Shown here piece by piece: positions 169 to 45,214 of a stretch of DNA of 64,000 nt. Numbering within the stretch: position 1 is the stretch's first letter; every line of letters starts with the position of its first letter. The notes under the pieces were generated by a model. That model worked only from the letters and a program-made list of their open reading frames with translations, was not told where the DNA came from and ran no database searches. Location: contig CAVPHR010000006.1 in assembly GCA_963704775.1 (NCBI GenBank), forward strand, positions 75 through 64,074. Direction: 5' to 3'. This stretch comes from an uncultured Chloroflexia bacterium. Lineage in GTDB: Bacteria; Chloroflexota; Limnocylindria; Limnocylindrales; CSP1-4. The position numbers and the translations under genes are program-made.

Positions 169-464
169 GCGGGACGCGGTCTCCGTTCTAACGGTGGGAT
201 GGGCGGGCGACGCGATCCGCGGGTCCGAGCCGGGCGGCGCGGGCGCCGCGTGATCCCGGGCGACAGCCCTGGCGGACATCGTCCGAGTTCTATCACGGCT
301 CCGGCTTCCGCGGCGGCGCTCGCCGCCGCGTCGATCAGGCGGACGGCGGGCTGGCGGCCAGGCCGGGGTGCCCTTGATCGGCTTGATCACGACCGTGCCG
401 GTCAGGGCTTCCGACGGGGTCCGTTTCTAGAGCGATCCCGGCATGGTTGACGCAGGGAACTGGC

Positions 465-1431: not shown

Positions 1432-1524
1432 CGAGAGCCTCCCCGATCCGCGCATGGCCGTCAAACAGCCAGTCCCGTTCGCGCACGGTGCCGACGCCGA
1501 CCGCGGCGGCCCGACCGTCGGCGG

Positions 1525-4415: not shown

Positions 4416-4470
4416 CTCGGCCTTCGCGTGTCGAGTACTGGACGGCTACGTTACAGCATCCCAATCGTCT

Positions 4471-4493
4471 CTATCCTATAGACAATAGGATAG
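4471..4493. promoter_or_regulatory. Candidate operator: perfect 9-bp inverted repeat CTATCCTAT-agaca-ATAGGATAG in the GntR/ABC divergent promoter region
   Basis: AT-rich perfect palindrome read directly in the 100-bp intergenic gap (4416-4515). It lies between the divergent GntR gene and the permease gene in otherwise GC-rich DNA. Confidence 0.45.
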
Positions 4494-4515
4494 CGTGCTG
4501 GCATAGTCCGCGACG

Positions 4516-12822: not shown

Positions 12823-13757
12823 CAGTGGCGGGCACGATCCTCATCACCGATTGCGACCATCCATCGACCGAGATCGAACGGGCCATGGTCGAGGCAGCCG
12901 GGTTCCGGCTCGAGGTTGCCGACTGCCGCACCGCGGCCGACGTCATCGCAGCGGGCACGACCAGCGCGGCGGCCGGACTGATCGTCCAGTACGCACCCAT
13001 CACCGGGGAGGTGTTGCGCGCCCTGCCGGCCTGTCGGGTCGTGGGCCGGTACGGTGTCGGACTCGATACGATCGACCTCGAGACCGCCGCGTCGCTGGAC
13101 ATCCGGGTCGTCAACGTGCCGGACTACTGCACGGACGAAGTCGCCGACCATGCCCTGGGACTGATCCTGGCCCTGACCCGTGGGATCGTCCCGCTCGACC
13201 GAGGAGTCCAGGCCGGCATCTGGGACTTCCGCCTGGCGGGGCGCGTTCGCCGCCCATCGAGCCAGCAGGTGGGCGTGGTCGGGCTCGGTCGGATCGGTTC
13301 GGCGTTCGCACGGCGTGCGCGGGCGCTCGGCTACACGGTGGTCGGCTCGGATCCGCGGGGACCACGCGCCTCGGATGTGCAGGTCGTCGAACTCGACGAC
13401 CTGCTTGCGACGAGCGACATCGTCAGCATCCATGCTCCGCTCGACGCCTCGACCCGCCATCTCATCGACGCGCGAACGCTGGCGCTGATGCGTCCCACGG
13501 CCATCCTGGTCAACACCAGCCGAGGCGGCCTGGTCGACCACGATGCCCTCGTCGACGCCCTGCGGTCAAGTCGTCTGGCGGGGGCGGCTCTCGATGTGCT
13601 CGAGCACGAGCCGATCCCGGCAGACGACCCATTGATCGGGCTCCCGAACGTGGTCCTGACGCCACACGCCGCGTTCTACAGCGAGGAATCGCTGGTCGAG
13701 ATGAAACAGAAGGTCACCCAGCGGGTATTGGCAGTCCTCGCCGACGGGGCCGGGTGA
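12819..13757 (+). CDS. D-isomer-specific 2-hydroxyacid dehydrogenase (CtBP/PGDH-like)
   Basis: MTVAGTILITDCD..., RVVGRYGVGLDTIDLETAASLDIRVVNVPDYCTDEVADHALGLILAL, GVVGLGRIGSAFARRARALGY, LVNTSRGGLVD, TPHAAFYSEES. ATGA overlap with the previous gene. Confidence 0.85.
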   Translation: MTVAGTILITDCDHPSTEIERAMVEAAGFRLEVADCRTAADVIAAGTTSAAAGLIVQYAPITGEVLRALPACRVVGRYGVGLDTIDLETAASLDIRVVNVPDYCTDEVADHALGLILALTRGIVPLDRGVQAGIWDFRLAGRVRRPSSQQVGVVGLGRIGSAFARRARALGYTVVGSDPRGPRASDVQVVELDDLLATSDIVSIHAPLDASTRHLIDARTLALMRPTAILVNTSRGGLVDHDALVDALRSSRLAGAALDVLEHEPIPADDPLIGLPNVVLTPHAAFYSEESLVEMKQKVTQRVLAVLADGAG

Positions 13758-13800
13758 AACGTCCGGTCAGAGATCGCACGCTATCGAAGGATGGCGATCC

Positions 13801-13949
13801 GGCGAATCAGGTGAACGTCCAGAAGTCGAATCAGGTGAACTTCGCGGCATCGCGTGGCTCCTTCTTGGAGTCCACGCCCTTGCTCTTGCCGCACGAAACC
13901 ACCAGATGTGGTGTGGAGGTGTTCCATGGATCGCTACCCATGGGGTAGC
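13801..13949. repeat. Copy 1 of a tRNA-adjacent module (two TCAGGTGAAC motifs plus two hairpins)
   Basis: Alignable by eye to 20542-20688. Shared blocks are ggcgaatcaggtgaacg, agaagtcgaatcaggtg, ggctccttctt, ccgcacg and aaccaccagatgtggtg. It ends in hairpin GCTACCC-atg-GGGTAGC abutting the tRNA-derived repeat. Confidence 0.6.
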
Positions 13950-13994
13950 TGGCTGGCGAGGAAGGATTCGAACCTTCGATCTCCTGATCCAGAG
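13950..13994 (-). repeat. Partial tRNA-Gln (3' 45 nt, CCA end to anticodon loop): att-like direct repeat
   Basis: tggctggcgaggaaggattcgaaccttcgatctcctgatccagag is identical to 20689-20733 inside the complete tRNA-Gln. Identity ends in the anticodon loop. Confidence 0.85.
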
Positions 13995-14430
13995 GACTCC
14001 CGACGTATTTCGCCGATGGTCGGTGCGATCTGAGCGTGGCGCGGGCTCGATTTCGGTTGGTCCGGCGGGCAATCAGGTTGAACATGCCGGACGGAGTCAG
14101 GTGAACGTCATTCGTTCAAGTAACTCCGGGACTGAACGTAACGCGCTCGACGACGGTTGGGAAGGGGAGCGGTTCCCGCTGTTCCGACGACTCCTGGTCC
14201 CGAACAGCTCATCTGACGTGCAAAGACATCCGCAACGATTATCGCGGGAGGCAACAGTTCAGCGAATGCGGGAGTGGTTCGCCGAACCATTGCCGGGGTG
14301 ATCGTTCTTGCTTGCATAGCTGTCCAGGACCACCACGATGAGTCTGGGGAAGCGGACGTGCCACTATTCGAAGACGTCGATATCGAGTCCGTGGCGGCAA
14401 AGGGGGTGGGGTGAGGTGACAGCAGGAAGC

Positions 14431-15363
14431 ATGATGGCGTTGAGGGCGCACAGGCAGGGTGGCCCGGAAGTTCTGGTATATGAATCTGCGCCACGGCCGA
14501 CCCCGGGGAGCGACGAGGTTCTGATCAGCGTCCACGCGGCGGCGATCACGTTCGCCGAGTTGACCTGGCCCGAGACTTGGGCCACGGATGGTGTCGACCG
14601 GACTCCGGTCATCCCGTCCCACGAGTTCTCTGGGGTCGCGGCCGAGGTCGGCGATGGCGTAACCGGACTGTCGGTCGGTGACGAGCTGTACGGGCTTGTG
14701 CCGTTCGACCGGGACGGCGCCGCGGCGGAGTACGTCAGCGTACCGGCCGCGAGTGTGGCCACCCGGCCTCGCACGGTGTCGCACGTCGTTGCGGCGGCCG
14801 CGGTGCTCCCTGCACTGACCGCCTGGGAAGCCTTGGTCGATCACGCGAAAGTTCAACCCGGCCAACGTGTGCTCGTGCGTGGAGGCGCCGGCGGTGTCGG
14901 GTCCTTCGTCACCCAGCTGGCGACTGCGCTTGGAGCCCGGGTCACGGCCACGGTGCATGCCCCCGACGCGGGGCACGTCCTCACTCTGGGCGCCGAACGC
15001 GTGATCACCAACGAACAGGAGTCGCTCGACGCGGAGAAAGGTGCCTTTGACGCCGTGATCGACGCCGTCGGTCAGGAAACACCGGAGGCCCTGTTCGCGG
15101 CACTCCGTCCTGGCGGGCGCCTGATTACCCTCCAGGAGCCTCCCTCACAGCAGACGGCCGACAAATACGGCGTAACGGCCCTCTTCTTCGTCGTGACGGC
15201 GAACCGGGACCGTCTGTCACAGGTGGCCGACATGATCGACACCGGCAAGCTGAAGGTCAGCGTCGCCGCGACGTTTCCGCTGGCCGATGGCCGAGCCGCC
15301 TACCAAAGCGGCGCCTCTAGGAGACACCGCCCGGGGAAGACCGTGCTGGTCGTCCGGGACTGA
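14431..15363 (+). CDS. NADPH:quinone oxidoreductase-like MDR (zeta-crystallin family)
   Basis: MMALRAHRQGGPEVLVYESAPRPTPGSDEVLISVHAAAITFAELTW...RVLVRGGAGGVGSFVTQLA...GKTVLVV. ATG preceded by AGGAAG. The upstream part of the 14338 ORF is not conserved-looking. Confidence 0.8.
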   Translation: MMALRAHRQGGPEVLVYESAPRPTPGSDEVLISVHAAAITFAELTWPETWATDGVDRTPVIPSHEFSGVAAEVGDGVTGLSVGDELYGLVPFDRDGAAAEYVSVPAASVATRPRTVSHVVAAAAVLPALTAWEALVDHAKVQPGQRVLVRGGAGGVGSFVTQLATALGARVTATVHAPDAGHVLTLGAERVITNEQESLDAEKGAFDAVIDAVGQETPEALFAALRPGGRLITLQEPPSQQTADKYGVTALFFVVTANRDRLSQVADMIDTGKLKVSVAATFPLADGRAAYQSGASRRHRPGKTVLVVRD

Positions 15364-15377
15364 GCGGTTCTCCGCAG

Positions 15378-16358
15378 GTGATAGCCATGCGACGCATGCA
15401 GGCGGTCGGCATCGACGCGTTCGGCGGCGAGGTACGAGTGCTCAAGCTCGCGGCGCCAGCGTCGCCCGCGCCGGACGAGGTCGTGATCTCGGTGCGCGCC
15501 GCCGGTGTCGGCAACTGGGACGAGTTCGTCCGCGTCGGCGACTGGGATGTCGGCCGGCCGCCGCCGCTGGCCCTCGGGGTTGAAGCGGCCGGGGTCGTTG
15601 ACGCGGCCGGCGAGGACGTGACGAGCCTCGCACCAGGCGACGAGGTGCTCACCCACCCACTGCCGCTGCGACACCAGGGCGCGTGGGCGGAGTGGCTCGT
15701 CGCTCCGGCCGCGCTCGTCGCGCGGAAGCCGGCCGCCGTCCCATGGGCGGCGGCGGCCGCATTCCCGGTGCCCGCGCTCACCGCCGACCAGGCGCTAACC
15801 GACGCCGCACCCGTCCCTGCCGGGAAATGGGTGCTCGTGCACGGCGCCGGTGGCGTCACCGGCGGGCTCGCCGTCCAGCTCGCGGTCGCGCGAGGCGCGA
15901 CCGTCGTCGCGACGGCGGGCCCGTCGAGCGTGGCGCGCATCCTCGGCGACGGGGCACATGCTGTAGTCGACTATCACGATCCCGAGTGGCCGACCCTCGT
16001 GCGAAACGCAACTCCAGGTGGACGTGGAGTTGACGCTGTAGTGAATGCGGCCCGCGGCGGGGCGGCGACCGCGTTGCAGACCGTCGCAGACGGCGGCCAT
16101 CTGGCGACGATCACTGGCGATCCGCCGTCACCTGAACGAGGAGTCACGGTCGCGAACATCTACGTCCGCGCGGACGGTGCTCGGCTTGCGGTCCTGGTGG
16201 CAGCACTCGCGGATGGGCTGCTGTCGCTCCACGTGGGAGCCACATTCCCGCTCGCAGACGCGGCCACGGCGCTCCAGGGCGCCGTCACCGGCCGCGCCGC
16301 CGGCGCGACCGTCCTGTCTCTCGAAGGCATCTCAAGTGACGCGCCGGACCACAAGTAA
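15378..16358 (+). CDS. NADPH:quinone oxidoreductase-like MDR, second paralogue
   Basis: MQAVGIDAFGGEVRVLKLAAPASPAPDEVVISVRAAGVGNWDEFVRVGDW...VLVHGAGGVTGGLAVQLA. The exact start (15378, 15387 or 15396) is uncertain. Confidence 0.8.
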   Translation: MIAMRRMQAVGIDAFGGEVRVLKLAAPASPAPDEVVISVRAAGVGNWDEFVRVGDWDVGRPPPLALGVEAAGVVDAAGEDVTSLAPGDEVLTHPLPLRHQGAWAEWLVAPAALVARKPAAVPWAAAAAFPVPALTADQALTDAAPVPAGKWVLVHGAGGVTGGLAVQLAVARGATVVATAGPSSVARILGDGAHAVVDYHDPEWPTLVRNATPGGRGVDAVVNAARGGAATALQTVADGGHLATITGDPPSPERGVTVANIYVRADGARLAVLVAALADGLLSLHVGATFPLADAATALQGAVTGRAAGATVLSLEGISSDAPDHK

Positions 16359-16423
16359 GTCGTACGCGCCGCGAGACACATAGCTCCGCGAGGCGGCTGC
16401 CTCGCCGTACAGCGCATCTGGGG

Positions 16424-16519
16424 GGCTCCTTCTTTGAGCCCGCGCCACGGCCTTTCCGCACGACACCAGATGCGGTGTGGGGAGTCTTCTGGGCCGCCAC
16501 CCGTTGGGTCGCTGGCTGG
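16424..16519. repeat. Copy 2 of the tRNA-adjacent module (diverged, ends in TGGCTGG only)
   Basis: ggctccttctttgagcccgcgccacggcctttccgcacgacaccagatgcggtgt... parallels 20597-20660. It keeps the ACACC/GGTGT hairpin and the terminal heptamer of the tRNA-Gln end, then diverges. Confidence 0.5.
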
Positions 16520-16578
16520 CTGGAGAGCGGCGCCTTCCAAGGCGCCTGTCGCGAGTTCGAACCTCGTCTCCCGCTCCA
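16504..16578 (+). pseudogene. tRNA-Gly(UCC)-like fragment (good 3' half, degenerate 5' half)
   Basis: 16531-16578 reads cgCCTTCCAAggcgcc-tgtc-GCGAGTTCGAACCTCGT-CTCCCGC-T-CCA. That gives a Gly UCC anticodon loop, canonical T-arm, acceptor 3' strand, U discriminator and CCA. No GCGGGAG 5' acceptor strand is present upstream, and the anticodon stem is offset by 1 nt. Confidence 0.45.
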
Positions 16579-16612
16579 AACATAAGTTCCACGTTCGGAC
16601 TCACCGAAAGCC

Positions 16613-17206
16613 ATGAAGGCTACGCGGGATGCCAAGCTGGCCTCTCAGACGGCACGGCTTGCTACCATTCGGCGCATGGTGAGAGGTGACTGGCCTGAGC
16701 TCGAATACCTCGTCATCGGGACGGGCGTGAGAGTCCTGCGCGCCAATGAAGCAGCGGCTAGCATTTCGGCCGCAGTCCAGGCATTGAACGAGGCGACTGC
16801 GGCCCTCCCACAGCAGCCAACGGCGGCGGACGTATCGAAATTGGCGGGACTGTGCGCGGCGCAGGTGGCGGCGCTCGAGGCAGTAGCCACGGCACTCGAG
16901 ACCGAGATGGCCGCCATCGCACCGGGGCAGGACCGGATCATCGACATCATCGACGCCGACCACGAGGCGACTGGCGTTGCCGAGGAGTACCTCGGGGGCG
17001 CCGTGTCCCTTGGCACGGCGGCCGCATTCCTGATCGAGGAACTCGCCAGGCTCCCCCGATCCCTCGAAAAGCTTGGTCGGACCTTCCCGACGGTCGAAGA
17101 AGCGACCGACGGTCTGGCTTCTACGATTCGTCGAGTGGTCGAGGCGCTTGAGCCAGCGATCGGATGGGGGGCTCGCTCCACCGCGATCCTGTCCGACTGG
17201 ACTTGA
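16613..17206 (+). CDS. Hypothetical protein, Ala-rich and predicted all-helical, no recognisable family
   Basis: 197-aa ORF with moderate GC3, lower than neighbouring core genes. It competes with an antisense 212-aa shadow ORF. I recognised no motif. Confidence 0.4.
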   Translation: MKATRDAKLASQTARLATIRRMVRGDWPELEYLVIGTGVRVLRANEAAASISAAVQALNEATAALPQQPTAADVSKLAGLCAAQVAALEAVATALETEMAAIAPGQDRIIDIIDADHEATGVAEEYLGGAVSLGTAAAFLIEELARLPRSLEKLGRTFPTVEEATDGLASTIRRVVEALEPAIGWGARSTAILSDWT

Positions 17207-17219
17207 CGCCGGCGGCTAG

Positions 17220-17477
17220 GTGAGCCGCAGTCAGCACTTCCGGGCAGACTCCTCGGCATCGCGGGTCGCGGTCCGTGGTCCACTGCTGATCATCGACGGC
17301 GAGAAGGACCACACGGTGCCGCCGGCGATCGCGAATGCCGCCTACAACCGGCAGAAGGGCAACCCGGGCGTGACGGAGTACGTGGAGATCACGGACCGAG
17401 GCCACTCCCTCACCATCGATCACGGCTGGCGCGAGGTCGCCGACACCGCGCTCGCCTTTGTCAAGCGCTTCGCCTAG
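17220..17477 (+). pseudogene. C-terminal stub of an alpha/beta hydrolase (about the last 65 residues only)
   Basis: PLLIIDGEKDHTVPPAIANAAYNRQKGNPGVTEYVEITDRGHSLTIDHGWREVADTALAFVKRFA matches the strand-8/His-loop end of alpha/beta hydrolases. The nucleophile elbow and N-terminal 200+ aa are missing. Confidence 0.6.
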
Positions 17478-17792
17478 TCGTGAACGTCCGTTCCGCGCCG
17501 GCCGTGCGTGACCGTCGCCTCGGCGGCGTCCCATCGGCGGAGGCTGATACGGCCGGCGCACCAGCTTTGCGAATCGATGGTCGGGCAAATGGGGACCGAC
17601 CAAATCATCGGCCGACGGGCTGGAAGGTCCCGGGCTATTCCAGTTCGTCAGTAGTCCGCCGGCGAGCCGCCGCCCCGACCCTGGTCCTCTGCCTGACATG
17701 GCACCCGAATAGCCTCCGACGGATCGCCGGCGAGCCCGGGCTGGATCACGACCAGCGGCGCGACGAGCGCGATGATCTGTTCGGGTCGCAGG

Positions 17793-18839
17793 TCAGACAT
17801 GGGGTCGCGTCGGACCCGGGATGTCTGTGCCCAGTCCATGGCTCTCCAGGCGGCTGCGCTGGTCGAGCGAGAAGAGCAGCGCCAACGAGGGCACGATCAG
17901 CACGGCCGCGACGACGAAGATCACGACCAGTGCCTGCAGTGAGCCCTCTGGTGCGGCAGCGGCCGCGATCGACATCGACCCGGGCAGGATGTCGGGGTAC
18001 TGGGCGGCGCCCCAGCCCCAGACGATGGCCACCACCGCCCCGATGGCCAGGGCCCGGGTGAACATCAACGCCTGTCGTCGGAGCAGGAGGAGAGCAGCGA
18101 GCCCCAGGACGACCGAACCGACGACGAACGGCCAGCCACGTCCGCTCAGGTTCTCGACGAACGCCGGGGTGTCGAAGCGCAGGACCACGAGTCCGCCGAT
18201 GGCAAGGCCGCCGGCGACGAGACCGGCGAGCGTGGCCCGACGCAGGAAGTACGCGGCAAGGCGGGTCTCGGAGCGGCGCCGGGCGTCGGCCACCAGGAAG
18301 ACCGCGGCGAGGTAGGCACAGATCGTGATCGCGAGGAGCCCGACGAAGATCGAGGTCGGGTTGATCCAGCTCTCGATCGGGTCCCCGGCAGCGTTGCCCA
18401 TCGGCACCCGACCGGACACGATCGCGCCGACCGCCGCACCGAGGAAGAACGGGGTGACCACGGACGAGATGGCGAAGACGGCACCGGCCGCGCGCCGGCC
18501 GGTCAGGTTCGCCGCGGTCGGGCGGAAGGCGAAGGCCGCACCGCGCAGGACGATCCCGAGCGCCGCGAGACTCAGGGGTACGAACAGGGTCGACATGATC
18601 GCGGCGAACGCGGGCGGGAAGGCGGTCCAAAGGATGACGATGGCGAAGATGAGCCAGGTGTGGTTCGCCTCCCAGACCGGTCCGATCGCGTCGGCGATGA
18701 GTGCCCGTGGCGCTGCCCCGCGCTCCGAGCCGCCCGCCGTCAGATCCCAGAACCCGGCCCCGAAGTCGGCGCCACCGAAGACCGCGTAGACGGTCAGCGC
18801 GAGCAGGAGCATGACCGCCGCGAGGTCGGCGGTCGTCAT
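17793..18839 (-). CDS. cydB: Cytochrome bd-type quinol oxidase subunit II
   Basis: 348-aa polytopic protein starting MTTADLAAVMLLLALTVYAVFGGADFGAGFWDL (typical CydB N-terminus). ATGA overlap with cydA. Confidence 0.9.
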   Translation of the reverse strand: MTTADLAAVMLLLALTVYAVFGGADFGAGFWDLTAGGSERGAAPRALIADAIGPVWEANHTWLIFAIVILWTAFPPAFAAIMSTLFVPLSLAALGIVLRGAAFAFRPTAANLTGRRAAGAVFAISSVVTPFFLGAAVGAIVSGRVPMGNAAGDPIESWINPTSIFVGLLAITICAYLAAVFLVADARRRSETRLAAYFLRRATLAGLVAGGLAIGGLVVLRFDTPAFVENLSGRGWPFVVGSVVLGLAALLLLRRQALMFTRALAIGAVVAIVWGWGAAQYPDILPGSMSIAAAAAPEGSLQALVVIFVVAAVLIVPSLALLFSLDQRSRLESHGLGTDIPGPTRPHV

Positions 18840-20296
18840 CGGTCGGCCTCGTCCTTCGTTCGGTCGTCATCGGTTCGATCGCCGTAGTCCTCGTCGGCGG
18901 TCCGATGCGGCCCGTAGGGGACAGAACCCTCATCCGTGGACAGGCTCGAGAGGTCGCGGCCACCGGCGGCGGCATCGGCCCGTGCCCAGCGACGGGCCAG
19001 CGCTCGCAGGGCGAACAGGGTGGCGATGCCCAGACCGGCGTACAGGACGACGACCGAGATGAACGTGGCTCGGACCCCGTCGGCCTGGGTGACCGCGTCG
19101 CTCGTGCGCAGCACCTCGTACACGACCCACGGCTGACGGCCGACCTCGGTGACGATCCAGCCGGCCTCGAGAGCCAGGATCGCCCCGATCCCGGCGAGTG
19201 TCGCGACCCGCAGGAACCAGCGTGAGGTCGCATGGTCACGCCGCCGGACGCGCAGGAACAACGCCCACGCACCCAGGAGGACGAGCACGGTCCCGATCCC
19301 GACCATCGTGTCCCAGGCCAGGTGGACGATCGTGGCCGGCGGTCGCTGGTCGACCGGGATCTGGTCGAAACCGGTGATCGTCGTGTTGGTATCGAACGCG
19401 GCCAGCCACGACGTCAGGTCGGGGATCCGGAGCCCTCCGATGACCTGGCCGTCGATGAGGATCCCTCCGACCGTCACGGGCTGGTGCGGACCTGTCGTCG
19501 TGATCAGCTCCATCGCCGCGAACTTCGCCGGCTGGTCGAGGAAGACCTCGCGTGCCGCGAAGTCACCGACCGCGACCTGGATCGGGGCCAGGATCGCGGC
19601 CACCGTGAACGGGATAGCGAATCCCAGCCGCACGTAGCGATCGCGCTGGCCCCGCAGCAGGCCGACGGCGTAGACCGAGGCCAGCAGGAAGCCGGTGACC
19701 ATGTACGCCGCAATGAGCATGTGCGGGACTTCGTAGGCGGTCGCCCCGTTGAAGATGACCTCGAGGGGTGCGACGGAGACGACCCGCCCGTCCGGACCCA
19801 GGATGTACCCGGCCGGCTGGTTCATCCAGCTGTTGGCGGCGACCACGGAGAACGTCCCACCCAGGCCGGCCAGGGCCACCGGGATCCCGGACCAGAAGTG
19901 GGCCCACGGCGAGAGCCGGTCCCAACCATAGATGTAGATGGCGATGAAGATGGCTTCGAGGAAGAAGAAGATGCCCTCGATCGCGAAGGGGATCCCGAAG
20001 GCGCCACCGAAGCGACCCATGAGGACCGGCCAAAGGAGGCCCATCTCGAAAGATAGGACCGTCCCGGTGACCGCACCGACGGCGAAGGTCACGGCCATGA
20101 CCAACGACCACCGGCGGGCAAGCAGGAGTGCCGCGGGATCGGCGCGGCGCAGACCGATCCAGTTGGCGATCAGGACCAGCGTCGGCAGGCCCACTCCGAG
20201 GCAGGCCAGGATGATGTGGAACCCGAGGGTGAATGCCATCTGGGAGCGGGCGGCAACCAGGTTTGCCGCGACGTCGTAGACCATCGGACGCGTCAC
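18836..20296 (-). CDS. cydA: Cytochrome bd-type quinol oxidase subunit I
   Basis: ARSQMAFTLGFHIILACLGVG..., GAVTGTVLSFEMGLLWP, FAIEGIFFFLEAIFIAIYIYGW and a Q-loop region. It carries an acidic C-terminal tail. Confidence 0.9.
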   Translation of the reverse strand: MTRPMVYDVAANLVAARSQMAFTLGFHIILACLGVGLPTLVLIANWIGLRRADPAALLLARRWSLVMAVTFAVGAVTGTVLSFEMGLLWPVLMGRFGGAFGIPFAIEGIFFFLEAIFIAIYIYGWDRLSPWAHFWSGIPVALAGLGGTFSVVAANSWMNQPAGYILGPDGRVVSVAPLEVIFNGATAYEVPHMLIAAYMVTGFLLASVYAVGLLRGQRDRYVRLGFAIPFTVAAILAPIQVAVGDFAAREVFLDQPAKFAAMELITTTGPHQPVTVGGILIDGQVIGGLRIPDLTSWLAAFDTNTTITGFDQIPVDQRPPATIVHLAWDTMVGIGTVLVLLGAWALFLRVRRRDHATSRWFLRVATLAGIGAILALEAGWIVTEVGRQPWVVYEVLRTSDAVTQADGVRATFISVVVLYAGLGIATLFALRALARRWARADAAAGGRDLSSLSTDEGSVPYGPHRTADEDYGDRTDDDRTKDEADR

Positions 20297-20541
20297 CTCA
20301 CCGGACGGGTCATCTAGCGGTCGTCCGAGTGTACGGCGGGCCGGGTATCCTCGGGACGACCCTGACCCTCAGCTTCGAGTCGACCCGTGGAAGTCCTGAC
20401 CTCGATGAGAGACGCGGTTTCGATACTCCTCGAGCGGAACAGGCTGATCTCCGTGCTCGGATACCACCTGAGTTGAACCAAACGCGTGGCGGCGCGGGTC
20501 GCGGCTCGGAGTACGCGGCGTCAGGTGACTTTTCGCCCTTC

Positions 20542-20688
20542 GGCGAATCAGGTGAACGACGAGAAGTCGAATCAGGTGCACTTCGGCGCGTTTCTGGGCT
20601 CCTTCTTCGAGCCCGCGCCACGCTCTTCCCGCACGCAACCACCAGATGTGGTGGTCGGAAGGCCTCAGATCCCTACGGCTGGTAGGGA
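20542..20688. repeat. Copy 3 of the tRNA-adjacent module (immediately 3' of tRNA-Gln)
   Basis: Holds TCAGGTGAAC-type motifs at 20548 and 20572, with a third variant just upstream at 20521. It has the CACCA/TGGTG hairpin and hairpin CCCTAC-ggctg-GTAGGG abutting the tRNA 3' end. Confidence 0.6.
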
Positions 20689-20763
20689 TGGCTGGCGAGG
20701 AAGGATTCGAACCTTCGATCTCCTGATCCAGAGTCAGGCGCCTTACCGCTTGGCCACTCGCCA
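20689..20763 (-). tRNA. tRNA-Gln: tRNA-Gln (anticodon CUG), CCA encoded
   Basis: Reverse complement folds as TGGCGAG-TG-GCC-AAGCGGTAA-GGC-G-CCTGA-CTCTGGA-TCAGG-AGATC-GAAGG-TTCGAAT-CCTTC-CTCGCCA-G-CCA. This is a full cloverleaf of 75 nt, architecturally parallel to E. coli tRNA-Gln. Confidence 0.92.
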
Positions 20764-21075
20764 GTGGAGCGGCGGTGATGATACCGCACGACCTCCCGGG
20801 ACTCCCGTCGGACCCGGCTTCAGACCGGTGGGCTTCGTCGGAACCTGTCCGTCGCCCGGACCGTCTCGACCCTAACCGCCGCTCACCGCGGATCGGGCGT
20901 GGGTCACCGACTACGACACCAAACGAGCTGGTGGGTCTGCCCCGGTAAGACGGCGCCATCTCGCTCGTCGGTCCCCGGACCGACGAGCGGATCCGCTTGA
21001 CGCTCGCCACGGCGTCCAAGAAGATGCCGCATACGATTGCCTGCTTCGAGATGGGTCGGGAGTGATCTGCCCAGC

Positions 21076-22095
21076 ATGACCGGTCGCAAGGTCACGATGC
21101 GCGACGTCGCACGTGCGGCAGGCGTCACCCAGAGCACCGTCTCGCGGGTCCTGTCGCCCACGCCCAACGGCATCCGGATCAGCGCCGAGACGCGAGATCG
21201 GGTCATGGCGGCGGTCGCCGAGCTCGGTTTCCACCCGAACCAGTACGCCCGCAGCCTGCGAGGCAAGAAGTCGCACATGATCGCGATGCTGATCGCGGAC
21301 ATCAGCAACCCCTTCTATCACCCCCTTGTCCGGGCGGTGCAGGATGTCGCATTCGGGCATCACTACGACGTGATGATCGCCAACAGCGATCACACGCGCG
21401 AGAAGGAGGAGCTGTTCGTCGAGTCGGTTACTCGGAGACCTGTCGACGGCGCGGTGATGATCCCGTATCACCTGACGGCCGACGACCTGGACGACCTCAT
21501 GGTCCGGACCGGCGTCGCCATCGCGGCCGTCGGCAGTCGGATCGAGCACCCCAGCATCGACGTCAGCTTCGGGGACGACGCCAAGGCGAGCTACGAAGTC
21601 GTCCGATGGCTCATCCGCGAGCGCGGCCACCGACGACTGGGGATGATCTGTGCCAACCCCGAATTCACCGTGACGAAGCACCGGCTGGCGGCGTTCCGCA
21701 GGGCGCTCGACGAGGCCGGACTGCCTGCCCCCGACGAGTACGTCGTGGCCGGCGACTGGACCGTCGAAACCGGCCAGCGCGGGATCCGCGAGCTGCTGTC
21801 GCTCGCCGAGCCGCCGACCGCGGTCTTCGCCGCGAGCGACACCATCGCCATCGGAGCCATGGAGGCGGCCGAGTCGATGGGCCGACGCATCCCGGACGAC
21901 GTGGCGATCGTCGGCTTCGACGACATCCCGGAGGCCCAGTGGGTTCGGCCGCGACTGACGACCGTCGCCCAGTACCCGGGCGAGATGGGCGAAAGACTGG
22001 CGACGGCCCTCTTCGAGCGGATCGACGGGAAGGAGGACATCGAGCGGCGAGTGTTCGAGGTCCCGTGCCGGTTCATCGAGCGCGAGTCCGCCTGA
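21076..22095 (+). CDS. LacI-family transcriptional regulator
   Basis: MTGRKVTMRDVARAAGVTQSTVSRVLS HTH followed by a periplasmic-binding-protein-like sugar-binding core (AMLIADISNPFY..., VFAASDTIAIGAMEA..., VGFDDIPEA). Confidence 0.85.
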   Translation: MTGRKVTMRDVARAAGVTQSTVSRVLSPTPNGIRISAETRDRVMAAVAELGFHPNQYARSLRGKKSHMIAMLIADISNPFYHPLVRAVQDVAFGHHYDVMIANSDHTREKEELFVESVTRRPVDGAVMIPYHLTADDLDDLMVRTGVAIAAVGSRIEHPSIDVSFGDDAKASYEVVRWLIRERGHRRLGMICANPEFTVTKHRLAAFRRALDEAGLPAPDEYVVAGDWTVETGQRGIRELLSLAEPPTAVFAASDTIAIGAMEAAESMGRRIPDDVAIVGFDDIPEAQWVRPRLTTVAQYPGEMGERLATALFERIDGKEDIERRVFEVPCRFIERESA

Positions 22096-22268
22096 CCCTT
22101 GTCCGACGTCGGGCGCCCTGAAGCCGATCGGGGATCCCCGTGCCTGGCCAGAGTGCGCCAAAACCAACCCGGTTCGCGCGCCCCCATTGACCATGCAATC
22201 GTATGCTATTGTTCGTATGCACTCTCAGTGTGTACGTCCCCCGCGCGTGTCACATGCAGGGAGCAGGG

Positions 22269-23767
22269 ATGCTGAACCGGATCAAGATCGATCTCGACCG
22301 GACGGTCGGCGACATCGATCGCAACGTCTTCGGCGGCTTCGTCGAGCACCTCGGACGGTGCGTGTACGGCGGCATCTACGATCCGACGTCACCAGGTGCT
22401 GACGAGCACGGTCTCCGGGACGACGTCCGCCAGGCCATCGACGGCCTACGAGCTCTCGAACATCCGGTACCCGGGCGGGAACTTCGTCTCCGGCTATCGA
22501 TGGCGCGACGGCGTCGGCCCGGTCGAGGACCGGCCGGCGAGACCCGACCTCGCCTGGGGCGCGATCGAGCCGAACACCTTCGGAACCAACGAGTTCGTCC
22601 GCTTCTGCCGCAAGATCGGCGCCGAGCCCTACTTCGTCGTGAACTGCGGGGACGGCGACCTGCGCGAGGCCCGCGACTGGGTCGAGTACTGCAACGGGAC
22701 GTCGGACACGACCCTGGCGCGCCTCCGGGCCGCGCACGGCTTCCCCGAGCCCCACCGGATCCGGTACTGGGGCATCGGCAACGAGGTCGACGGGGCGTGG
22801 CAGATCGGGGCGAAGAGCCCGGCCGAGTACGCCCGCGCCTACCACGAGTTCGCCAAGGTGATGCGCTGGACCGACCCCACCATCAAGCTGATCGCGTCGG
22901 CGACGTCGGACTGGGACGGCGACATCGTCGAGCGGGTCACGCTGCTGACCGAGGAGGCCGTGGACCTCATCGACTACCTGTCGATCCACTGGTACGTCGG
23001 CGACCCGGACCGGGACATCGACGCCTATCTCGCGACATCGGAGACCATCGAGGCCCGCCTGAGCGCCTACGAAGGACTCGCCCGTGGGATGACGCTCCGT
23101 CGGGCCGGACGCCGACCGCAGGCGGCCCCGATCCCCCTGGCGGTCGACGAGTGGAACGTCTGGTACCGGACGACCGGCGATCGGGTGGGGACACCGCCGC
23201 ACCTCCTCGAGGAGACCTACGACCTGGCGGACGCGCTCGTCGTGGCGATGCACCTGAACGCCTTCATCCGCCACGCGGCGACTGTTCGCATGGCGAACCT
23301 CGCCCAGCTCGTCAACGTCATCGCTCCCGATCGTGACGACCCCCGACGGCGTCGTCCTCCAGACGATCTACCACCCGTTCGCGCTGTTCAGCCGCTCCGT
23401 CGGCCGCGTCGCGCTCGATACGTGGTGGGACGGTGACACCTTCACCGGCGGCGATCTCCAGGGCGTCCGGACGCTCGACTGCTCCTCCTCGATCGATCCG
23501 GACGCCCGCCGCCTCAGCGTTCACGTCGTCAATCGCCACCAGACCGAGGCTCTCGAGGGCGTCATCGAGCTGGTCGGAGGTCGGCTCGGCAGCTGCGTCG
23601 AGATCACGACGATCGACGGGCCCGACCTTCGACTCACGAACTCCGCGGAACGACCCGATGCGGTCGTGGCGACCGAGCAGGAGCTCGAGATCCGCCCGGC
23701 GACCGAGTTTCGCCATGTCTTTCCACCCCGCTCCGTGACCGGGCTCGTGTTCACGGATCTGAGCTGA
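22269..23767 (+). CDS. abfA: GH51 alpha-L-arabinofuranosidase, interrupted by two apparent frameshifts (~22443 and 23326-23328)
   Basis: Three consecutive frames give one GH51 protein. First: MLNRIKIDLDRTVGDIDRNVFGGFVEHLGRCVYGGIYDP...DDVRQAIDG. Second: YELSNIRYPGGNFVSGYRWRDGVGP...YWGIGNEVDGAWQIG...MANLAQLVNVIAP. Third: IVTTPDGVVLQTIYHPFALFS...VTGLVFTDLS. Total length is about 499 aa. Confidence 0.75.
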
Positions 23768-23870
23768 CCGAGAGGAGGACGCCGGGCGCACACGACGTGG
23801 TAGGTGGGGACAGGAGCCGATCCGCGCGGCGACTCGCGGTGGATCCGAGCTCATAGAGAGGAGCGACTGC

Positions 23871-25232
23871 ATGAAACGACTGCTCGGGCTGGCGGTCATC
23901 GCATCCCTCGTCTGGGCGTGCGGCGGCCCCAGCACCTCGACCGCGCCAAGCGGCTCCGCCGACAGTCCGCCGGCGGCCGAAGCATCGCCGACGCCGAATA
24001 CCGGTCTGTGCACGGCCAAGACACCTGAAGAGGCGACGTTCACCTTCTGGACCTTCGTCGATCGCCACGCCACGTGGTGGCAGAAGCGGGCGGACGAGTG
24101 GAACACGGCGAACCCTGACAAGAAGATCACGCTCAACTGCTCGGTCATCGCATACCAGCAGATGCACGACAACCTGGCCGCCGCGTTCACGGCCGGATCC
24201 GGCGCACCGAACCTCGTCGACATCGAGATCGGCAAGTTCGCGAATTTCACCAAGGGAACCATCCACCTGGCCGACATGACGGCTGAGGTCCAGCCGTACG
24301 TCGCGGACCTCGTCGCGACCCGGCTCGCGCCGTATCAGGCGGCTGGCAAGCAGTACGCCGTCGACTACCACCTGGGCGCGGTCCTCGCCTTCTACAACAA
24401 GGACCTCCTCGACGCCGGTGGCGTCGACCCGGCGACGATCAAGACATGGGACGACTACATCGCGGCCGGCAAGAAGGTGCAGGCGGCGAAGCCCGACGTG
24501 AACTTCGCGGCGATCGACATCACCGGCGTCATCCCGGTCCGCAGCCTGATGCTCCAGGCGGGCGGCGGCGTGTACGACCAGAGCGGCAAGCTGATCATGA
24601 ACTCGCCGGCGAACGTCACGGCGCTCCAGCTCGCATCGAAGATGATCAACGAGGACAAGATCGCGGTGCCTGCTCCGGGCGGCAACAACGGCCAGCCCGA
24701 CTTCTTCGCGGCGATGCAGGCGGGCAAGATCGCGTCGGTCTGGATGCCCCAGTGGTACATGACCCGCTTCCCCGACAACATGGCCGATCTGTGCGGCCAC
24801 ATGGTCATCGAGCCGATGCCGACCTTCCCGGGCGGCCAGTTCACCACGACCATGCAGGGAGGCACCGGCACTGCGGTCACCGACCAGACGCCGGCCGACA
24901 AGCAGCAGCTCGCCAAGGACTTCGTGACCTGGGCGAAGCTGACAAAGGAGGGCCAGACGTCGATCTGGACCGATCTCGGCTTCGACCCATACCGGACGGA
25001 CGTCTACGACGATCCGGCGCTCCGGAAGCCGGACCCGTGCTTCAACAACCAGATCACATTCGACGTCATCAAGAGCGAGCTCGGTGGCGTCGCACCCGAG
25101 TACACGGGCCCTGCGTACCCGCAGGCCCAGGACTACATGGCGAACACGCTCATCAACGACGTGCTCGTCAACAAGGTCGATCCCAAGGAGGCCCTAGACA
25201 CGGCGCAGCAGACGATCGAATCACAGCAGTGA
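23871..25232 (+). CDS. Carbohydrate ABC transporter substrate-binding lipoprotein (family 1 SBP)
   Basis: Lipoprotein signal MKRLLGLAVIASLVWAC followed by a 430-aa SBP_bac_1-like domain. It sits next to two MalF/MalG-type permease genes. Confidence 0.85.
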   Translation: MKRLLGLAVIASLVWACGGPSTSTAPSGSADSPPAAEASPTPNTGLCTAKTPEEATFTFWTFVDRHATWWQKRADEWNTANPDKKITLNCSVIAYQQMHDNLAAAFTAGSGAPNLVDIEIGKFANFTKGTIHLADMTAEVQPYVADLVATRLAPYQAAGKQYAVDYHLGAVLAFYNKDLLDAGGVDPATIKTWDDYIAAGKKVQAAKPDVNFAAIDITGVIPVRSLMLQAGGGVYDQSGKLIMNSPANVTALQLASKMINEDKIAVPAPGGNNGQPDFFAAMQAGKIASVWMPQWYMTRFPDNMADLCGHMVIEPMPTFPGGQFTTTMQGGTGTAVTDQTPADKQQLAKDFVTWAKLTKEGQTSIWTDLGFDPYRTDVYDDPALRKPDPCFNNQITFDVIKSELGGVAPEYTGPAYPQAQDYMANTLINDVLVNKVDPKEALDTAQQTIESQQ

Positions 25233-25316
25233 GACGATCCCCGCGCTGAGACGCGCGTGACCTGGCGCCGCATCGGCCTGGCCGGTGCGGCGCTGGCACC
25301 CCCCTGGAGAGGCGCC

Positions 25317-26210
25317 ATGGCGAGAGTGCGAACCCTGCTCTTCAGCTCGAAGCTCGCCCCCTACGTCTTCATCGCGCCATTCCTGCTGATCTTCATCGTC
25401 TTCCGCGTGATCCCGACGATCTACGCGGTCGTGATCAGCCTCGACAAGTTCGAAGGCACCGACGATCTCGGATTCACCGGCGTCCTGAACTACCAGAAGG
25501 TCCTCTCCAACCCGGCCCTCGGCAAGGCGTTCAGCAACACCGTCCTCTACACGCTCGGAACGCTGCTCGTGCTCATCCCGATCCCGCTCGTGCTGGCCGC
25601 CCTCCTCGACAGCGGTCGGGTCGTCAAGGGGACCGTCTTCCGAGTCGCGCTGTTCCTGCCGGCACTCACGTCATTGGTCGTCGTCAGCGTCATCTTCCGG
25701 ATCGTGCTCTCGAATGACGGACTCTTGAACGTCGGGCTGTCGGGGGTCGGACTCGGCGAGAACGCCTGGCTCGAGACCCAGAGCCTCGCGATCCCCGCGA
25801 TGATCATCGTCGCGGCCTGGCGCTGGACCGGCGTCAACATCATCTACTTCAGTTCGGGTCTCGTGAACGTCCAGCGGGACCTCTACGAGGCCGCGGCGCT
25901 CGATGGCGCGGGCGCGTGGCGCACATTCCGCAGCATCACCCTGCCGATGATCCAGCCGACCGTGCTGTTCGTGCTCATCCTGTCGATCATCGGCGGCTTC
26001 CAGCTCTTCGTCGAGCCCTACCTCCTGTGGTCGTTCGGCAACTCGCCGGGCAACGGCGGCCTCTCGGTCGCCCTGCTCATCTACCGCACCGCCTTCAACA
26101 ACTTCAATTTCGGGCAGGCGGCGGCGATGGGGGTGCTCCTGGCACTGGTCATCCTGGTCGTCTCGATCATCCAGTTCCACTTCTTCGGCGGCAGAAGGTC
26201 CGAGCGTTGA
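25317..26210 (+). CDS. Carbohydrate ABC transporter permease (MalF/CUT1 type)
   Basis: MARVRTLLFSSKLAPYVFIAPFLLIFIVFRVIPT... and EAA loop region YEAAALDGAGAWRTFRSITLPM. Confidence 0.85.
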   Translation: MARVRTLLFSSKLAPYVFIAPFLLIFIVFRVIPTIYAVVISLDKFEGTDDLGFTGVLNYQKVLSNPALGKAFSNTVLYTLGTLLVLIPIPLVLAALLDSGRVVKGTVFRVALFLPALTSLVVVSVIFRIVLSNDGLLNVGLSGVGLGENAWLETQSLAIPAMIIVAAWRWTGVNIIYFSSGLVNVQRDLYEAAALDGAGAWRTFRSITLPMIQPTVLFVLILSIIGGFQLFVEPYLLWSFGNSPGNGGLSVALLIYRTAFNNFNFGQAAAMGVLLALVILVVSIIQFHFFGGRRSER

Positions 26211-27106
26211 CCGCCGGGGACGACGTTCGCGAGCAGGCCGGCGAGCGTGCGGCGGTCAAGGTCGCCTCCGGAGCGCGACCACGCCGGATCACGGCGACCA
26301 AGGCCGGCATCGCGGTGGTCTTCCTCATCCTGTCGCTGCTGTTCATCATCCCGATCTACTGGATGGTCCTCAGCTCCATGCGCCCGCAGAGCTCGATCTT
26401 CGGCGCCAACATCAACCTGCTGCCGACCGGGTTGTCCCTCGACAACTACGTGCGCCTCTTCCGGGATACCCCGTTCGCGAAGTGGTTCTTCAACTCGGCT
26501 ACGCAGTCGCTGGGCTACGCGACCCTGACCGTGGCGATGTGCGCGATGGCCGGCTACGCGTTCGCGAAGTACCGGTTTCGCGGCCGAACGGTGATCTTCT
26601 GGACGATCCTCATCTCGCAGATGCTGCCGTTCCAGCTGCTGATCGTGCCCCTCTTCATCGAGATCGTCCGGCTCGGGCTGGTCGAGTCGTACTGGGCTGC
26701 CATCGTGCCACTGGCGGCCCACCCGATCGGGTTGTTCTTCATGCGCCAGTACATGCTCGGATTCAGCGACGACCTGCTCGCCGCCGGCCGGGTGGACGGC
26801 GCCAGCGAATACCGGCTCTTCTGGTCGGTCGTGCTTCCGAACATCCGGCCGGCCCTTGCGACCCTCTTCATCCTGTTCGCGCTCGACTACTGGAACAACC
26901 TGCTCTGGCCGCTGATCGTGTTCCGGCAAGTGGAGAACATGCCGCTGGCCGTCGGACTGGCGAACATGATCAGCCAGTACAAGGTCTCCTATGACCTGCT
27001 CCTTGCGGGCTCGACGCTGGCGACCCTGCCCGTCATCGCGCTGTTCATCCTGTTCCGCAAGCAGTTCATGGCGGGCACCGCCGTCACCGGAACGGGGATC
27101 CAGTAG
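26207..27106 (+). CDS. Carbohydrate ABC transporter permease (MalG/CUT1 type)
   Basis: IPIYWMVLSSMRPQS... and LLAAGRVDGASEYRLFWSVVLPNIRP EAA loop. The likely TTG start at 26207 overlaps the previous stop, but the start is uncertain. Confidence 0.8.
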   Translation: MTAGDDVREQAGERAAVKVASGARPRRITATKAGIAVVFLILSLLFIIPIYWMVLSSMRPQSSIFGANINLLPTGLSLDNYVRLFRDTPFAKWFFNSATQSLGYATLTVAMCAMAGYAFAKYRFRGRTVIFWTILISQMLPFQLLIVPLFIEIVRLGLVESYWAAIVPLAAHPIGLFFMRQYMLGFSDDLLAAGRVDGASEYRLFWSVVLPNIRPALATLFILFALDYWNNLLWPLIVFRQVENMPLAVGLANMISQYKVSYDLLLAGSTLATLPVIALFILFRKQFMAGTAVTGTGIQ

Positions 27107-27182
27107 CGCCGACTCGGTCGGTCCGCGCCCGGTACGTTCGGGGGAGGTGCCAACCTTGCCCTGACCGGGTAGCCTCGTAGAC

Positions 27183-27980
27183 ATGCACCGACCGACCGGC
27201 CCCGGTCCGACCGGCCGCCTCCTGATCCTCGTGCTCAGCGTCGCGCTGCTGACCGGGCTGACCGCCACGGTCACGACGGCAGCCGACGGCGCGGCCCTCC
27301 CCGCGTGCAAGGTCGCGGACACGCTCACCCTGCACCGATCCCTGACCGACTGGCGCCGTGCCCTCCTCGACCAGCAGTTCCGGCTCTCGAGCGCCCACAA
27401 GCCCAGGGATCTGCGCTCGACCGCGGGCGCGGGGCTCAACGCCGGCTACAAGGTCCGCCGCGTCGCCCTGACCGACCTCAAGAAGATGGCGACCGCGGCT
27501 CGCCGGGCCAGTGCCCGCTTCTCGGTCCAGTCCGCCTACCGGAGCTATGCGACCCAGAAGGCGACGTTCCAGAGCTGGGTCCGCGCCCACGGCTACGCCG
27601 TCGCGCTCAAGGAGAGTGCCCGGGCCGGCCACAGCGAGCATCAGCTCGGGACGACCGTCGACCTGCGGACGTACGGCGGGCGGGCTCCCTGGGACGTGAA
27701 GGACTGGGGCAAGTCGAAGGCCGGCAAGTGGCTCAAGGCGAATGCGTGGAAGTACGGCTTCGTCATGAGCTACCCGAAGGGCAAGACCGCGGTGACCTGC
27801 TACACGTACGAGCCCTGGCACTACCGGTATGTCGGTCGTCCTCTTGCGAAGGACGTCCGCGACAGCACGCTGACCCTGCGCGAATTCCTCTGGCAGCGGC
27901 AGAACCCGCCGGCCGCGCCGGAGCCAACCCCGACTCCGACCCCGACGCCCGAACCGAGTCCGAGCGACACCACCTCCTGA
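27183..27980 (+). CDS. Secreted M15B (VanY-type) D-alanyl-D-alanine carboxypeptidase
   Basis: Signal peptide, then SAYRSYATQKATF...SEHQLGTTVDL...YGFVMSYPKGKTAVTCYTYEPWHYRYVG (Zn ligands H-x6-D ... H). Pro/Thr-rich C-terminal tail. Confidence 0.8.
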   Translation: MHRPTGPGPTGRLLILVLSVALLTGLTATVTTAADGAALPACKVADTLTLHRSLTDWRRALLDQQFRLSSAHKPRDLRSTAGAGLNAGYKVRRVALTDLKKMATAARRASARFSVQSAYRSYATQKATFQSWVRAHGYAVALKESARAGHSEHQLGTTVDLRTYGGRAPWDVKDWGKSKAGKWLKANAWKYGFVMSYPKGKTAVTCYTYEPWHYRYVGRPLAKDVRDSTLTLREFLWQRQNPPAAPEPTPTPTPTPEPSPSDTTS

Positions 27981-31440: not shown

Positions 31441-35115
<3,675 letters not shown>

Positions 35116-35214
35116 TCCACTCGACTCATCGGACGACCGATGAGTTTTCCCCTGGTCCGACGTTTCACGACCAGACGACCGGTTCGACCGGACCGGCCAC
35201 AGCTGGAGGAAACC

Positions 35215-36617: not shown

Positions 36618-36620
36618 ACG

Positions 36621-37451: not shown

Positions 37452-37504
37452 CGGCGCATGGTATCGACGGCGAGCGATGCCGGAGGGTCGCGTACGCTGC
37501 GCCC

Positions 37505-38660: not shown

Positions 38661-38676
38661 CCGATCGACATCGATG

Positions 38677-38712: not shown

Positions 38713-38736
38713 GCATCGACCTGGAGGTTCGCGATC

Positions 38737-45182: not shown

Positions 45183-45214
45183 CCGGCGACGGGTCACGCC
45201 TGGATCGTCCGGGC

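Follow-up and report, generated by a model that had tools for sequence, protein, structure and literature searches.

The window analyzed here, 64,000 nucleotides of contig CAVPHR010000006.1 (GenBank assembly GCA_963704775.1) from an uncultured Chloroflexia bacterium of the Limnocylindrales lineage CSP1-4, contains a tRNA-Gln(CUG) gene and, at the 3′ end of that gene, an array of displaced tRNA fragments, conserved flanking arms and metabolic genes. Relatives of several genes of this organism carry the labels Chloroflexia, Chloroflexota, or Candidatus Limnocylindria/Limnocylindrales, and it is probably Limnocylindria-like. We conclude that this array is most probably the scar of at least three site-specific integrations stacked at tRNA-Gln, the integrase genes having since been lost. 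The region is a tandem accretion of integrase-less modules that resemble cis-mobilizable elements (CIMEs); elements of this type have been described before, but the soil Chloroflexota lineage in which they are mapped here is new to them and little studied. The conclusion is carried by the repeats themselves, by the homology of their flanks to the arms of integrase-bearing elements, by the lack of a recombinase in the window and by the recurrence of the same junctions in other contigs.

The tRNA-Gln core and its arms

ARAGORN called one tRNA in the window, tRNA-Gln(ctg), which also scored as a tRNA with Rfam (Table 1). The last 45 nt of this gene are present a second time as a displaced, direct-orientation 3′ fragment downstream of the whole gene, with identity at 45 of 45 positions (13950 to 13994 versus 20689 to 20733). 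In the sense of the tRNA, the Rfam alignment places this core between the first base of the anticodon loop (CUCUGGA) and the terminal CCA; the identity block thus begins in the anticodon loop, a canonical crossover sublocation in the Islander scheme. A 25-mer taken from the core matched the window twice at up to 3 mismatches, versus no matches in 100 shuffles. A first-pass annotation, made from the letters of the window alone, had reported both the perfect 45-bp direct repeat and its extent from the CCA end to the anticodon loop of a minus-strand tRNA-Gln(CUG), and both are borne out. Its further claim that identity stops exactly at the ends of the repeat holds on the right side, where the copies part (GACTCCCGACG versus TCAGGCGCCTTA). 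To the left, beyond the CCA, it had overlooked about 150 bp of additional similarity (13800 to 13949 versus 20541 to 20688, 84 to 86% identity).

Beside the cores, the repeated unit is made up of three small hairpins and, after them, copies of the motif GAATCAGGTGAAC arrayed at 24-nt spacing. This motif occurs five times in the window (13804, 13828, 14094, 20545, and 20569), with a degenerate sixth copy at 20518. Arm copy 3, which adjoins the intact gene, has all three motif positions (CACCTGATTC in the tRNA sense; 20569 to 20581, 20545 to 20557, and 20518 to 20527), and no integrase gene lies beyond them. Arm copy 1, which adjoins the displaced core, ends before the third motif and the integrase. 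Arm copy 2, delimited by a repeat search and three-way alignment, is a partial copy inside the island; its end, TGGCTGGC, corresponds to the initial 8 nt of the 3′ end of the tRNA. All three have counterparts among the related contigs and loci that we compared with the window, which are designated by L and a number. Copy 1 is 84 to 89% identical to arms beside full tRNA genes in L016, L098, L117, and L041, and its layout is similar to that of the L136 arm; copy 2 is 78 to 84% identical to arms in L016, L053, L098, L117, and L134; and copy 3 is 85 to 87% identical to L060, L041, and L117 over window positions 20481/20486 to 20733 and beyond.

The same array, with all three repeat copies, is present in L005, a 3.46-Mb contig from ENA that represents an independent assembly of a close relative (99.5% identity to the window in the left flank, 96 to 97.5% in the island, and 94% past 27.1 kb). 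An assembly artifact, which the first-pass annotation had named as a possible source of the repeat, is therefore ruled out. The two strains differ upstream of cydA, where L005 lacks one 24-bp unit of the motif array (L005 9700 to 9760 versus window 20518 to 20581; two copies versus three). This difference indicates that array copy number varies between strains, although long-read errors in L005 are also possible.

Recurrent junctions and linked integrases in related contigs

An exact-match scan of metagenomes with the 45-mer gave at least 122 matches in at least 120 contigs. Among the matches listed, to which the class sizes below also refer, 65 lie in complete tRNA-Gln genes, 6 are near a contig end and could not be classified, and about 50 are displaced 3′ fragments followed by non-tRNA DNA, mostly in recurrent junction classes. 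Class I (11 contigs) reads GACTCCCRACG..TTTCTGCCGATGGTCGGTG, the same as the window from 13995. Class II (at least 19 contigs) reads TC(A/T)G....CGAATCAGGCCTCGCGAGCC and class III (6 contigs) reads TCAGGTGACCGATTTTCGCGATTC; in both of these the identity block is 4 nt longer.

In 11 of 11 class I contigs, the 45-mer is followed by the distal arm. This arm is 80 to 89% identical to that of the window in 10 metagenome contigs, in each directly after the 45-mer, and similarity ends at window positions 14185 to 14194 in every contig that reads that far. Within it, a 40-nt block starting at 14068 (GGCAATCAGGTTGAACATGCCGGACGGAGTCAGGTGAACG) is invariant or differs by at most 2 mismatches across the class I contigs; this core of the arm had no match among viral contigs. 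The DNA beyond the distal arm could be read in six contigs. The cargo was unrelated each time, and no integrase was found there within up to 7.5 kb. It comprises two-component systems and an ATP-binding cassette (ABC) transporter in L071; a LuxR/AAA16 regulator, DUF1269, and transporters in L086; TetR, a medium-chain dehydrogenase/reductase (MDR) dehydrogenase, DUF6326, and a hydrolase in L062 and L016; HD-GerE in L082; and a CAAX protease with a hydrolase in L085. Two copies of the 45-mer bracket small modules in several contigs: 3.3 kb in L016 (TetR, MDR dehydrogenase, and DUF6326, with the annotation taken from the near-identical L062 module), 3.2 kb in L047 (one STAND-NTPase/cyclase gene), 2.5 kb in L103, and about 0.7 kb in L070 and L015. 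No integrase was found in the L016 and L047 modules, the two in which genes were checked.

A full tRNA-Gln together with a displaced fragment is also found in a predicted prophage contig of IMG/VR, which makes this site a hot spot for several element types. In this 41-kb predicted viral contig (IMGVR_UViG_3300043667_000015; loci L138 and L140), the arm adjoining the full tRNA-Gln carries two copies of another repeat, CGGTGGCGGTAC, and the displaced 45-mer fragment lies beside an integrase arm of the L040 type. The contig apparently represents a prophage integrated at the same site atop an older element.

Clustering of the long open reading frames (ORFs) of the 120 contigs yielded one family of about 330 to 350 amino acids (aa), encoded on the tRNA strand 60 to 215 nt past the tRNA 3′ end (L040, L043, L054, L118, L094, L023, L033, and L015). 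The three members that were scanned (L094, L040, and L118) match PF00589 with E values of 4e-31 to 6e-32, and two of the three also contain the SAM-like N-terminal domain PF02899. The interval from the tRNA end to the integrase start holds hairpins followed by two to four copies of (G/T)TCACCTGA(T/C)TC, 24 to 26 nt apart. The first motif is 101 to 113 nt past the tRNA end in integrase-bearing loci and in window copies 1 and 3 alike. The same order of tRNA-Gln, hairpins, two or three copies of TTCACCTGATTC and then an integrase is found in L135 and L136, two long contigs reached through integrase homologs. Their first integrase is followed by a second, convergent one (L135 11079 to 11975; L136 11005 to 11967), which is a tyrosine recombinase immediately next to the first, and then by helix-turn-helix regulators, a type I restriction-modification system, and genes without an assigned function. 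Neither a relaxase nor a coupling protein was present among the genes read over about 10 kb past the integrase in these two contigs.

Other relatives retain the arm with little or none of the gene. The arms of L060, L041, L134, and L117 are 82 to 87% identical to window copy 3, and this homology ends at about 20486, where the integrase ORF starts (HRFDAVV...). In L060, L041, and L134 the arm is followed by only the first 30 to 85 codons of the integrase (RFDAVVADFVAACRAKDLPPRTIEFYL...); the L117 contig ends as the ORF begins. These N-terminal remnants indicate that decay of the integrase is common in this family. On the basis of their position, their periodicity, their presence on both arms, and their linkage to an integrase gene, the GAATCAGGTGAAC repeats are candidate arm-type integrase binding sites. 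The distal arm is best read as a set of DNA sites. A structured RNA was considered for this arm and rejected because RNAalifold found no compensatory changes among 11 copies on either strand.

The window itself encodes no recombinase that we could detect. Searches of Pfam with six-frame translations of all island spacers gave no match to PF00589, PF00239, or PF07508, and none was found in the annotated genes or in any ORF of the 64 kb that composition supports. With the cognate integrases as tblastn queries, only the motif arrays of the window matched, and no integrase did. These searches, which include the profile search proposed in the first-pass annotation, agree with its statement that a tyrosine or serine recombinase is lacking. 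The island also contains no primase or helicase, and comparison of its genes with Pfam and PHROGs returned metabolic genes only, with no phage structural or conjugation genes. An integron cassette array was rejected as a candidate, given the lack of an integrase and the nature of the repeats, which are tRNA fragments with arms and not attC sites. Taken together, the recurrent junctions, the adjoining integrases, and the homologous arms support the original reading, in which the repeat marks site-specific integration at the 3′ part of a tRNA gene and the element is either decayed or reliant on an integrase encoded elsewhere.

Cargo, composition, and chromosomal flanks

Pfam and NCBIfam recovered the cargo as first described: two MDR genes, a 197-aa ORF without a family, an 85-aa stub, and cydAB (Table 1). 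For the MDR genes, the top NCBIfam match is the PIG3 quinone-oxidoreductase subfamily, below its cutoff. The product of orf197 is kept in L005, and elsewhere only a 47-aa C-terminal match in L038 was found. The hydrolase stub, which has a PHROG match to an esterase (E value of 0.003), is a pseudogene fragment. The tRNA-like remnant adjoins the 8-nt tRNA-Gln core stump at the left end of module B; it is 94% conserved in L005 and matches nothing else, and it possibly represents an att scar left by a different tRNA site. The closest nonconspecific CydA homologs (78 to 84%) lie in unrelated contexts, with no tRNA-Gln at the four loci scanned, and at a fifth locus (L141) there is no gap upstream of cydA into which a tRNA-Gln would fit. 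A native link of cydAB to tRNA-Gln was rejected because all five of these contexts are unrelated. A lookup of the exact CydB protein of the window gave no record.

Table 1. Features of the integrated region and its tRNA-Gln target, in window coordinates
Feature	Position	Strand	Description
Arm copy 1	13800-13949	minus	Hairpins and two motif copies (13804-13816 and 13828-13840)
Left core copy	13950-13994	minus	Displaced tRNA-Gln 3′ fragment; 45-nt identity
Distal arm (P-prime arm)	13995-14194	unassigned	Junction class I; motif copies CAATCAGGTTGAAC (from 14070) and GAGTCAGGTGAAC (14094-14106)
MDR/quinone-oxidoreductase-like gene 1	14431-15363	plus	Module A; Pfam ADH_N, ADH_zinc_N(_2)
MDR/quinone-oxidoreductase-like gene 2	15378-16358	plus	Module A; Pfam ADH_N, ADH_zinc_N(_2)
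Arm copy 2, shortened	16423-16520	minus	Hairpins only, no motif array; 8-nt core stump (TGGCTGGC) at 16513-16520
tRNA-like remnant	16519-16579	plus	Acceptor, anticodon-like, and T arms with CCA, no D arm; Rfam 18.8 bits, E value 0.13, below threshold
orf197	16613-17206	plus	Module B; 197 aa; no Pfam, NCBIfam, or PHROG family
Alpha/beta-hydrolase stub	17220-17477	plus	85-aa C-terminal stub; weak Pfam matches to the C-terminal ends of PF00326 and PF00561
cydB	17793-18839	minus	Module B; cytochrome bd oxidase (Pfam PF02322 and PF01654 for cydB and cydA)
cydA	18836-20296	minus	Module B; cytochrome bd oxidase (Pfam PF02322 and PF01654 for cydB and cydA)
Arm copy 3, integrase-proximal (P arm)	20486-20688	minus	Three hairpins, then three motif copies
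Right core copy	20689-20733	minus	Last 45 nt (3′) of tRNA-Gln, within the intact gene
Intact tRNA-Gln(CUG)	20689-20763	minus	Integration target; ARAGORN; Rfam tRNA 70.1 bits

Composition does not clearly set the island apart. The noncoding spacers had been described as visibly lower in GC than the chromosome around them, which is true of 13995 to 14430 (59.9%) but not of 16359 to 16612 (66.5%) or 17478 to 17792 (69.2%), both near the window norm of 64 to 75% per kb. The GC content at third codon positions (GC3) is 0.79 to 0.80 for the MDR genes, 0.88 to 0.89 for cydAB and the hydrolase stub, and 0.82 to 0.89 in the flanks, with the island minimum at orf197 (0.74). Neither GC3 nor tetranucleotide profiles bear out an island distinct from its flanks. 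The top tetranucleotide outliers of the window are 1 to 5500 and 24500 to 27500 (z of about 2.4), which exceed the island; their genes include a GH42 beta-galactosidase and an aldo-keto reductase (GC3 of 0.68 to 0.74) and ABC permeases that belong to the strain-specific sugar cluster.

On the left, the flanking cluster consists of an enolase-family gene, 2-keto-3-deoxy-6-phosphogluconate (KDPG) aldolase, PfkB, two zinc-dependent alcohol dehydrogenases, and then a 2-hydroxyacid dehydrogenase. It is conserved in L010, L011, L012, and L014 at 76 to 92% nucleotide identity, and in these relatives homology is lost where the dehydrogenase gene ends or shortly beyond it (window 13726 to 13795), with unrelated genes next. 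The break in L010 (13795) coincides with the outer edge of the arm copy 1 motif array, which places the left unit of about 150 bp outside the conserved chromosome. To judge from this alignment, foreign DNA begins at about 13796, not at 13950. Of the single island from 13950 that had been proposed, the integration footprint stands, whereas its start moves to about 13796 and the island is composite, with two cargo modules and an internal att remnant.

On the other side, the tRNA-Gln 5′ flank is native. Window positions 34093 to 51180 are syntenic with L136 122 to 8133, in the same order and orientation and at 44 to 85% amino acid identity (alcohol dehydrogenase, metallo-beta-lactamase, hydrolase, aldehyde dehydrogenase, HhH-GPD, and YjeF_N), and the same tRNA-Gln in L136 bears an integrase-carrying island. 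Some 13 kb of additional DNA (20.8 to 34.1 kb) separates tRNA-Gln from this syntenic block in the window, versus about 1.6 kb in L136 (ferritin and carbonic anhydrase). Also on the tRNA 5′ side, L005 lacks window positions 20960 to 27107 (6.1 kb), a sugar cluster with a LacI-like regulator, an arabinofuranosidase, and an ABC sugar transporter. In its place L005 carries a gene for a 267-aa protein, of which the window retains about 80 bp (20882 to 20960). A homologous sugar cluster is found in L001, without any tRNA. The alpha-l-arabinofuranosidase gene of the window (22276 to 23436, plus strand) seems truncated or frameshifted at its C terminus: Pfam Alpha-L-AF_C covers profile positions 1 to 56 of 165, and the tail is rich in Arg and Pro.

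Proposed history and comparison with known systems

In the history that we propose, the tRNA-Gln(CUG) gene of this Chloroflexota lineage would be the attachment site for a family of elements with a tyrosine integrase. These elements would cross over in the anticodon loop, and because they bring with them the 3′-terminal 45 nt of the tRNA, integration would restore the gene. Each arrival would place a distal arm, cargo, a proximal arm, and a core just to the left of the tRNA 5′ part and shift older elements leftward, and deletions after the integrations would have removed every integrase gene. Module B (about 16521 to 20688) would then comprise the tRNA-like scar, orf197, the hydrolase stub, cydBA, and a complete proximal arm without its integrase. 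The segment from 16423 to 16520 would be the internal att remnant that separates modules A and B, and module A (13995 to 16422) would hold the conserved distal arm and the two MDR oxidoreductases. Leftmost, the 45-nt tRNA fragment behind the shortened arm at 13800 to 13949 would be the remnant of an older element, fused to the dehydrogenase flank. The observed left-to-right order requires at least three integrations and several deletions; the minimum of three follows from the two cargo modules, the internal att remnant, and the arm remnant that precedes the left 45-mer.

Several results weigh against this history. The left cluster continues in relatives with other genes and no tRNA-Gln, and no empty site was found. 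The arrangement predicted at the outset, with the dehydrogenase directly abutting tRNA-Gln, was seen in no relative examined: in five contexts of 2-hydroxyacid dehydrogenase orthologs (71 to 99% identity) homology ends at the end of the gene without a tRNA-Gln, and a scan of the genome collection with the LacI-like neighbor gave four relatives, none with a tRNA nearby. Insertion at the exact chromosomal place is hence deduced rather than seen. No single contig yielded a complete element that had both an integrase and the class I distal arm, and the link between this arm and a particular integrase is indirect, its basis being the shared motif and the tandem arrangement of L060. At its left end, module B lacks a recognizable distal arm. 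For the motifs there is no covariation support (no compensatory double changes in the RNAalifold analysis). Finally, composition is not distinctive, with a tetranucleotide z of at most 1.5 in the island and of −1.4 to +1.25 in the cydAB windows, as would be expected if the donors were relatives.

The alternative that survives best is that the array is alive. The integrase-less modules would then be working, cassette-like units, and their excision and insertion would depend on a tRNA-Gln-specific integrase that another part of the genome or an incoming element supplies and that acts in trans or, once accretion has taken place, in cis. We consider this possible but unlikely. It is favored by the retention of two perfect cores, a full distal arm, and a full three-motif proximal arm, by the recurrence of small bracketed modules (the two checked being without an integrase), and by the documented mobilization of CIMEs by accretion in other phyla (PMC5704250). 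The conservation of the distal arm at 80 to 89%, with a near-invariant core of 40 nt beside cargo that cannot be aligned, suggests selection on the site. However, the 64-kb window holds no integrase, and the 3.46-Mb L005 contig carries none of the 120 top-ranking relatives of the L094 integrase, although this is a weak test. Both available strains have the array in an identical arrangement, which gives no sign of movement, and the internal att site is cut down to 8 nt, with which modules A and B could not move separately. If modules are mobilized in trans, they would amount to a simple cargo-exchange system. Extended beyond this genome, the idea becomes that the tRNA-Gln(CUG) of soil Chloroflexota hosts a cassette-like system, in which a tRNA-Gln-specific tyrosine integrase captures, stacks, and exchanges modules in trans; this is a tentative proposal that we regard as doubtful. 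A module of such a system may consist of one to four genes and a conserved attP of about 400 bp with the shared GAATCAGGTGAAC motif, and in this attP the 45-bp core may be flanked by a proximal arm of 150 to 200 bp and a distal arm of 200 bp. If the proposal is true, the site would be a functional analog of integron or tycheposon arrays and not a graveyard of decayed islands.

Improbable, by comparison, is a single island of 6.7 kb, with the 150 bp to the left of 13950 being the native trailer of tRNA-Gln and the island copy resembling it through a related donor. Perfect identity over 45 bp next to flanks of about 85% fits different origins of the two copies, and trailer hairpins do adjoin many full tRNA-Gln genes. 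Yet the trailer and motif array precede an integrase or its remnant in L135, L136, L094, L060, L041, and L134 and hence belong to the element, the island contains a third copy, and homology to L010 ends at 13795, which leaves the trailer outside the conserved flank. Segmental duplication, homologous recombination of the tRNA-Gln region, or an assembly artifact, with no site-specific recombination, could account for three direct-orientation copies with extended similarity but is highly improbable, given an anticodon-loop break common to dozens of unrelated contigs, 45/45 identity next to 85% (which would not be expected), the same structure in an independent assembly, and integrases physically linked to the same sequences elsewhere.

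The stacked-integration reading precisely maps an attachment site for an uncultured, abundant soil lineage, down to its core and two arms, together with a candidate arm-site motif and candidate integrases, and it locates a respiratory oxidase (cydAB) and quinone-oxidoreductase-like genes in a gene-exchange hot spot. A full-text literature search combining Limnocylindria with integrase was empty, with no described mobile elements for the lineage.

Among the closest known systems is the CIME. CIMEs form by decay and accretion, and one site-specific integration after another at a target-gene end gives rise to tandem decayed arrays (PMC5704250), as in the ICESt1-related elements of Streptococcus thermophilus (Pavlovic 2004 and Bellanger 2011, as cited in PMC5704250). 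The segment from 13995 to 20733 keeps both arms and two perfect cores, and therefore all the cis sites that an integrase would require, but no integrase. In this it matches the CIME definition: attL and attR are retained (two 45-bp cores, with arms at 13995 to 14194 and 20486 to 20688) and there is no recombinase. Unlike the ICESt1-related CIMEs, the host is a member of the Chloroflexota, not the Firmicutes, and the target here is tRNA-Gln. As to a possible ancestry among integrative and conjugative elements or integrative and mobilizable elements, no conjugation module was seen in the roughly 10 kb past the integrase in the intact relatives L135 and L136.

The array also shares with Islander islands a tRNA target of a tyrosine integrase, an island-supplied 3′ part, a displaced direct fragment, and a crossover in the anticodon loop; Islander records the anticodon-centered attP class, to which this crossover position corresponds, as its commonest (PMC4383910, which cites Williams 2002). 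Islander requires an integrase gene inside the island (PMC4383910), which is not present here, and the array would therefore go unreported by it; island finders that demand an integrase would overlook such arrays. In tycheposon arrays, which lie in genomic islands of Prochlorococcus, new arrivals push older elements inward and leave degenerate remnants and extra partial tRNAs (bioRxiv 10.1101/2020.12.28.424599). Tycheposons have their own integrase and replication modules, whereas no replication module was seen here or in the L135 and L136 genes read, and they differ in lineage and habitat (soil in the present case). Both nonetheless have elements in tandem, with partial target-tRNA copies between them. 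Finally, the attachment site resembles lambda-type attP in having direct repeats of about 13 nt on both sides of the core, 70 to 160 nt away from it and next to the int gene, which we regard as putative integrase sites.

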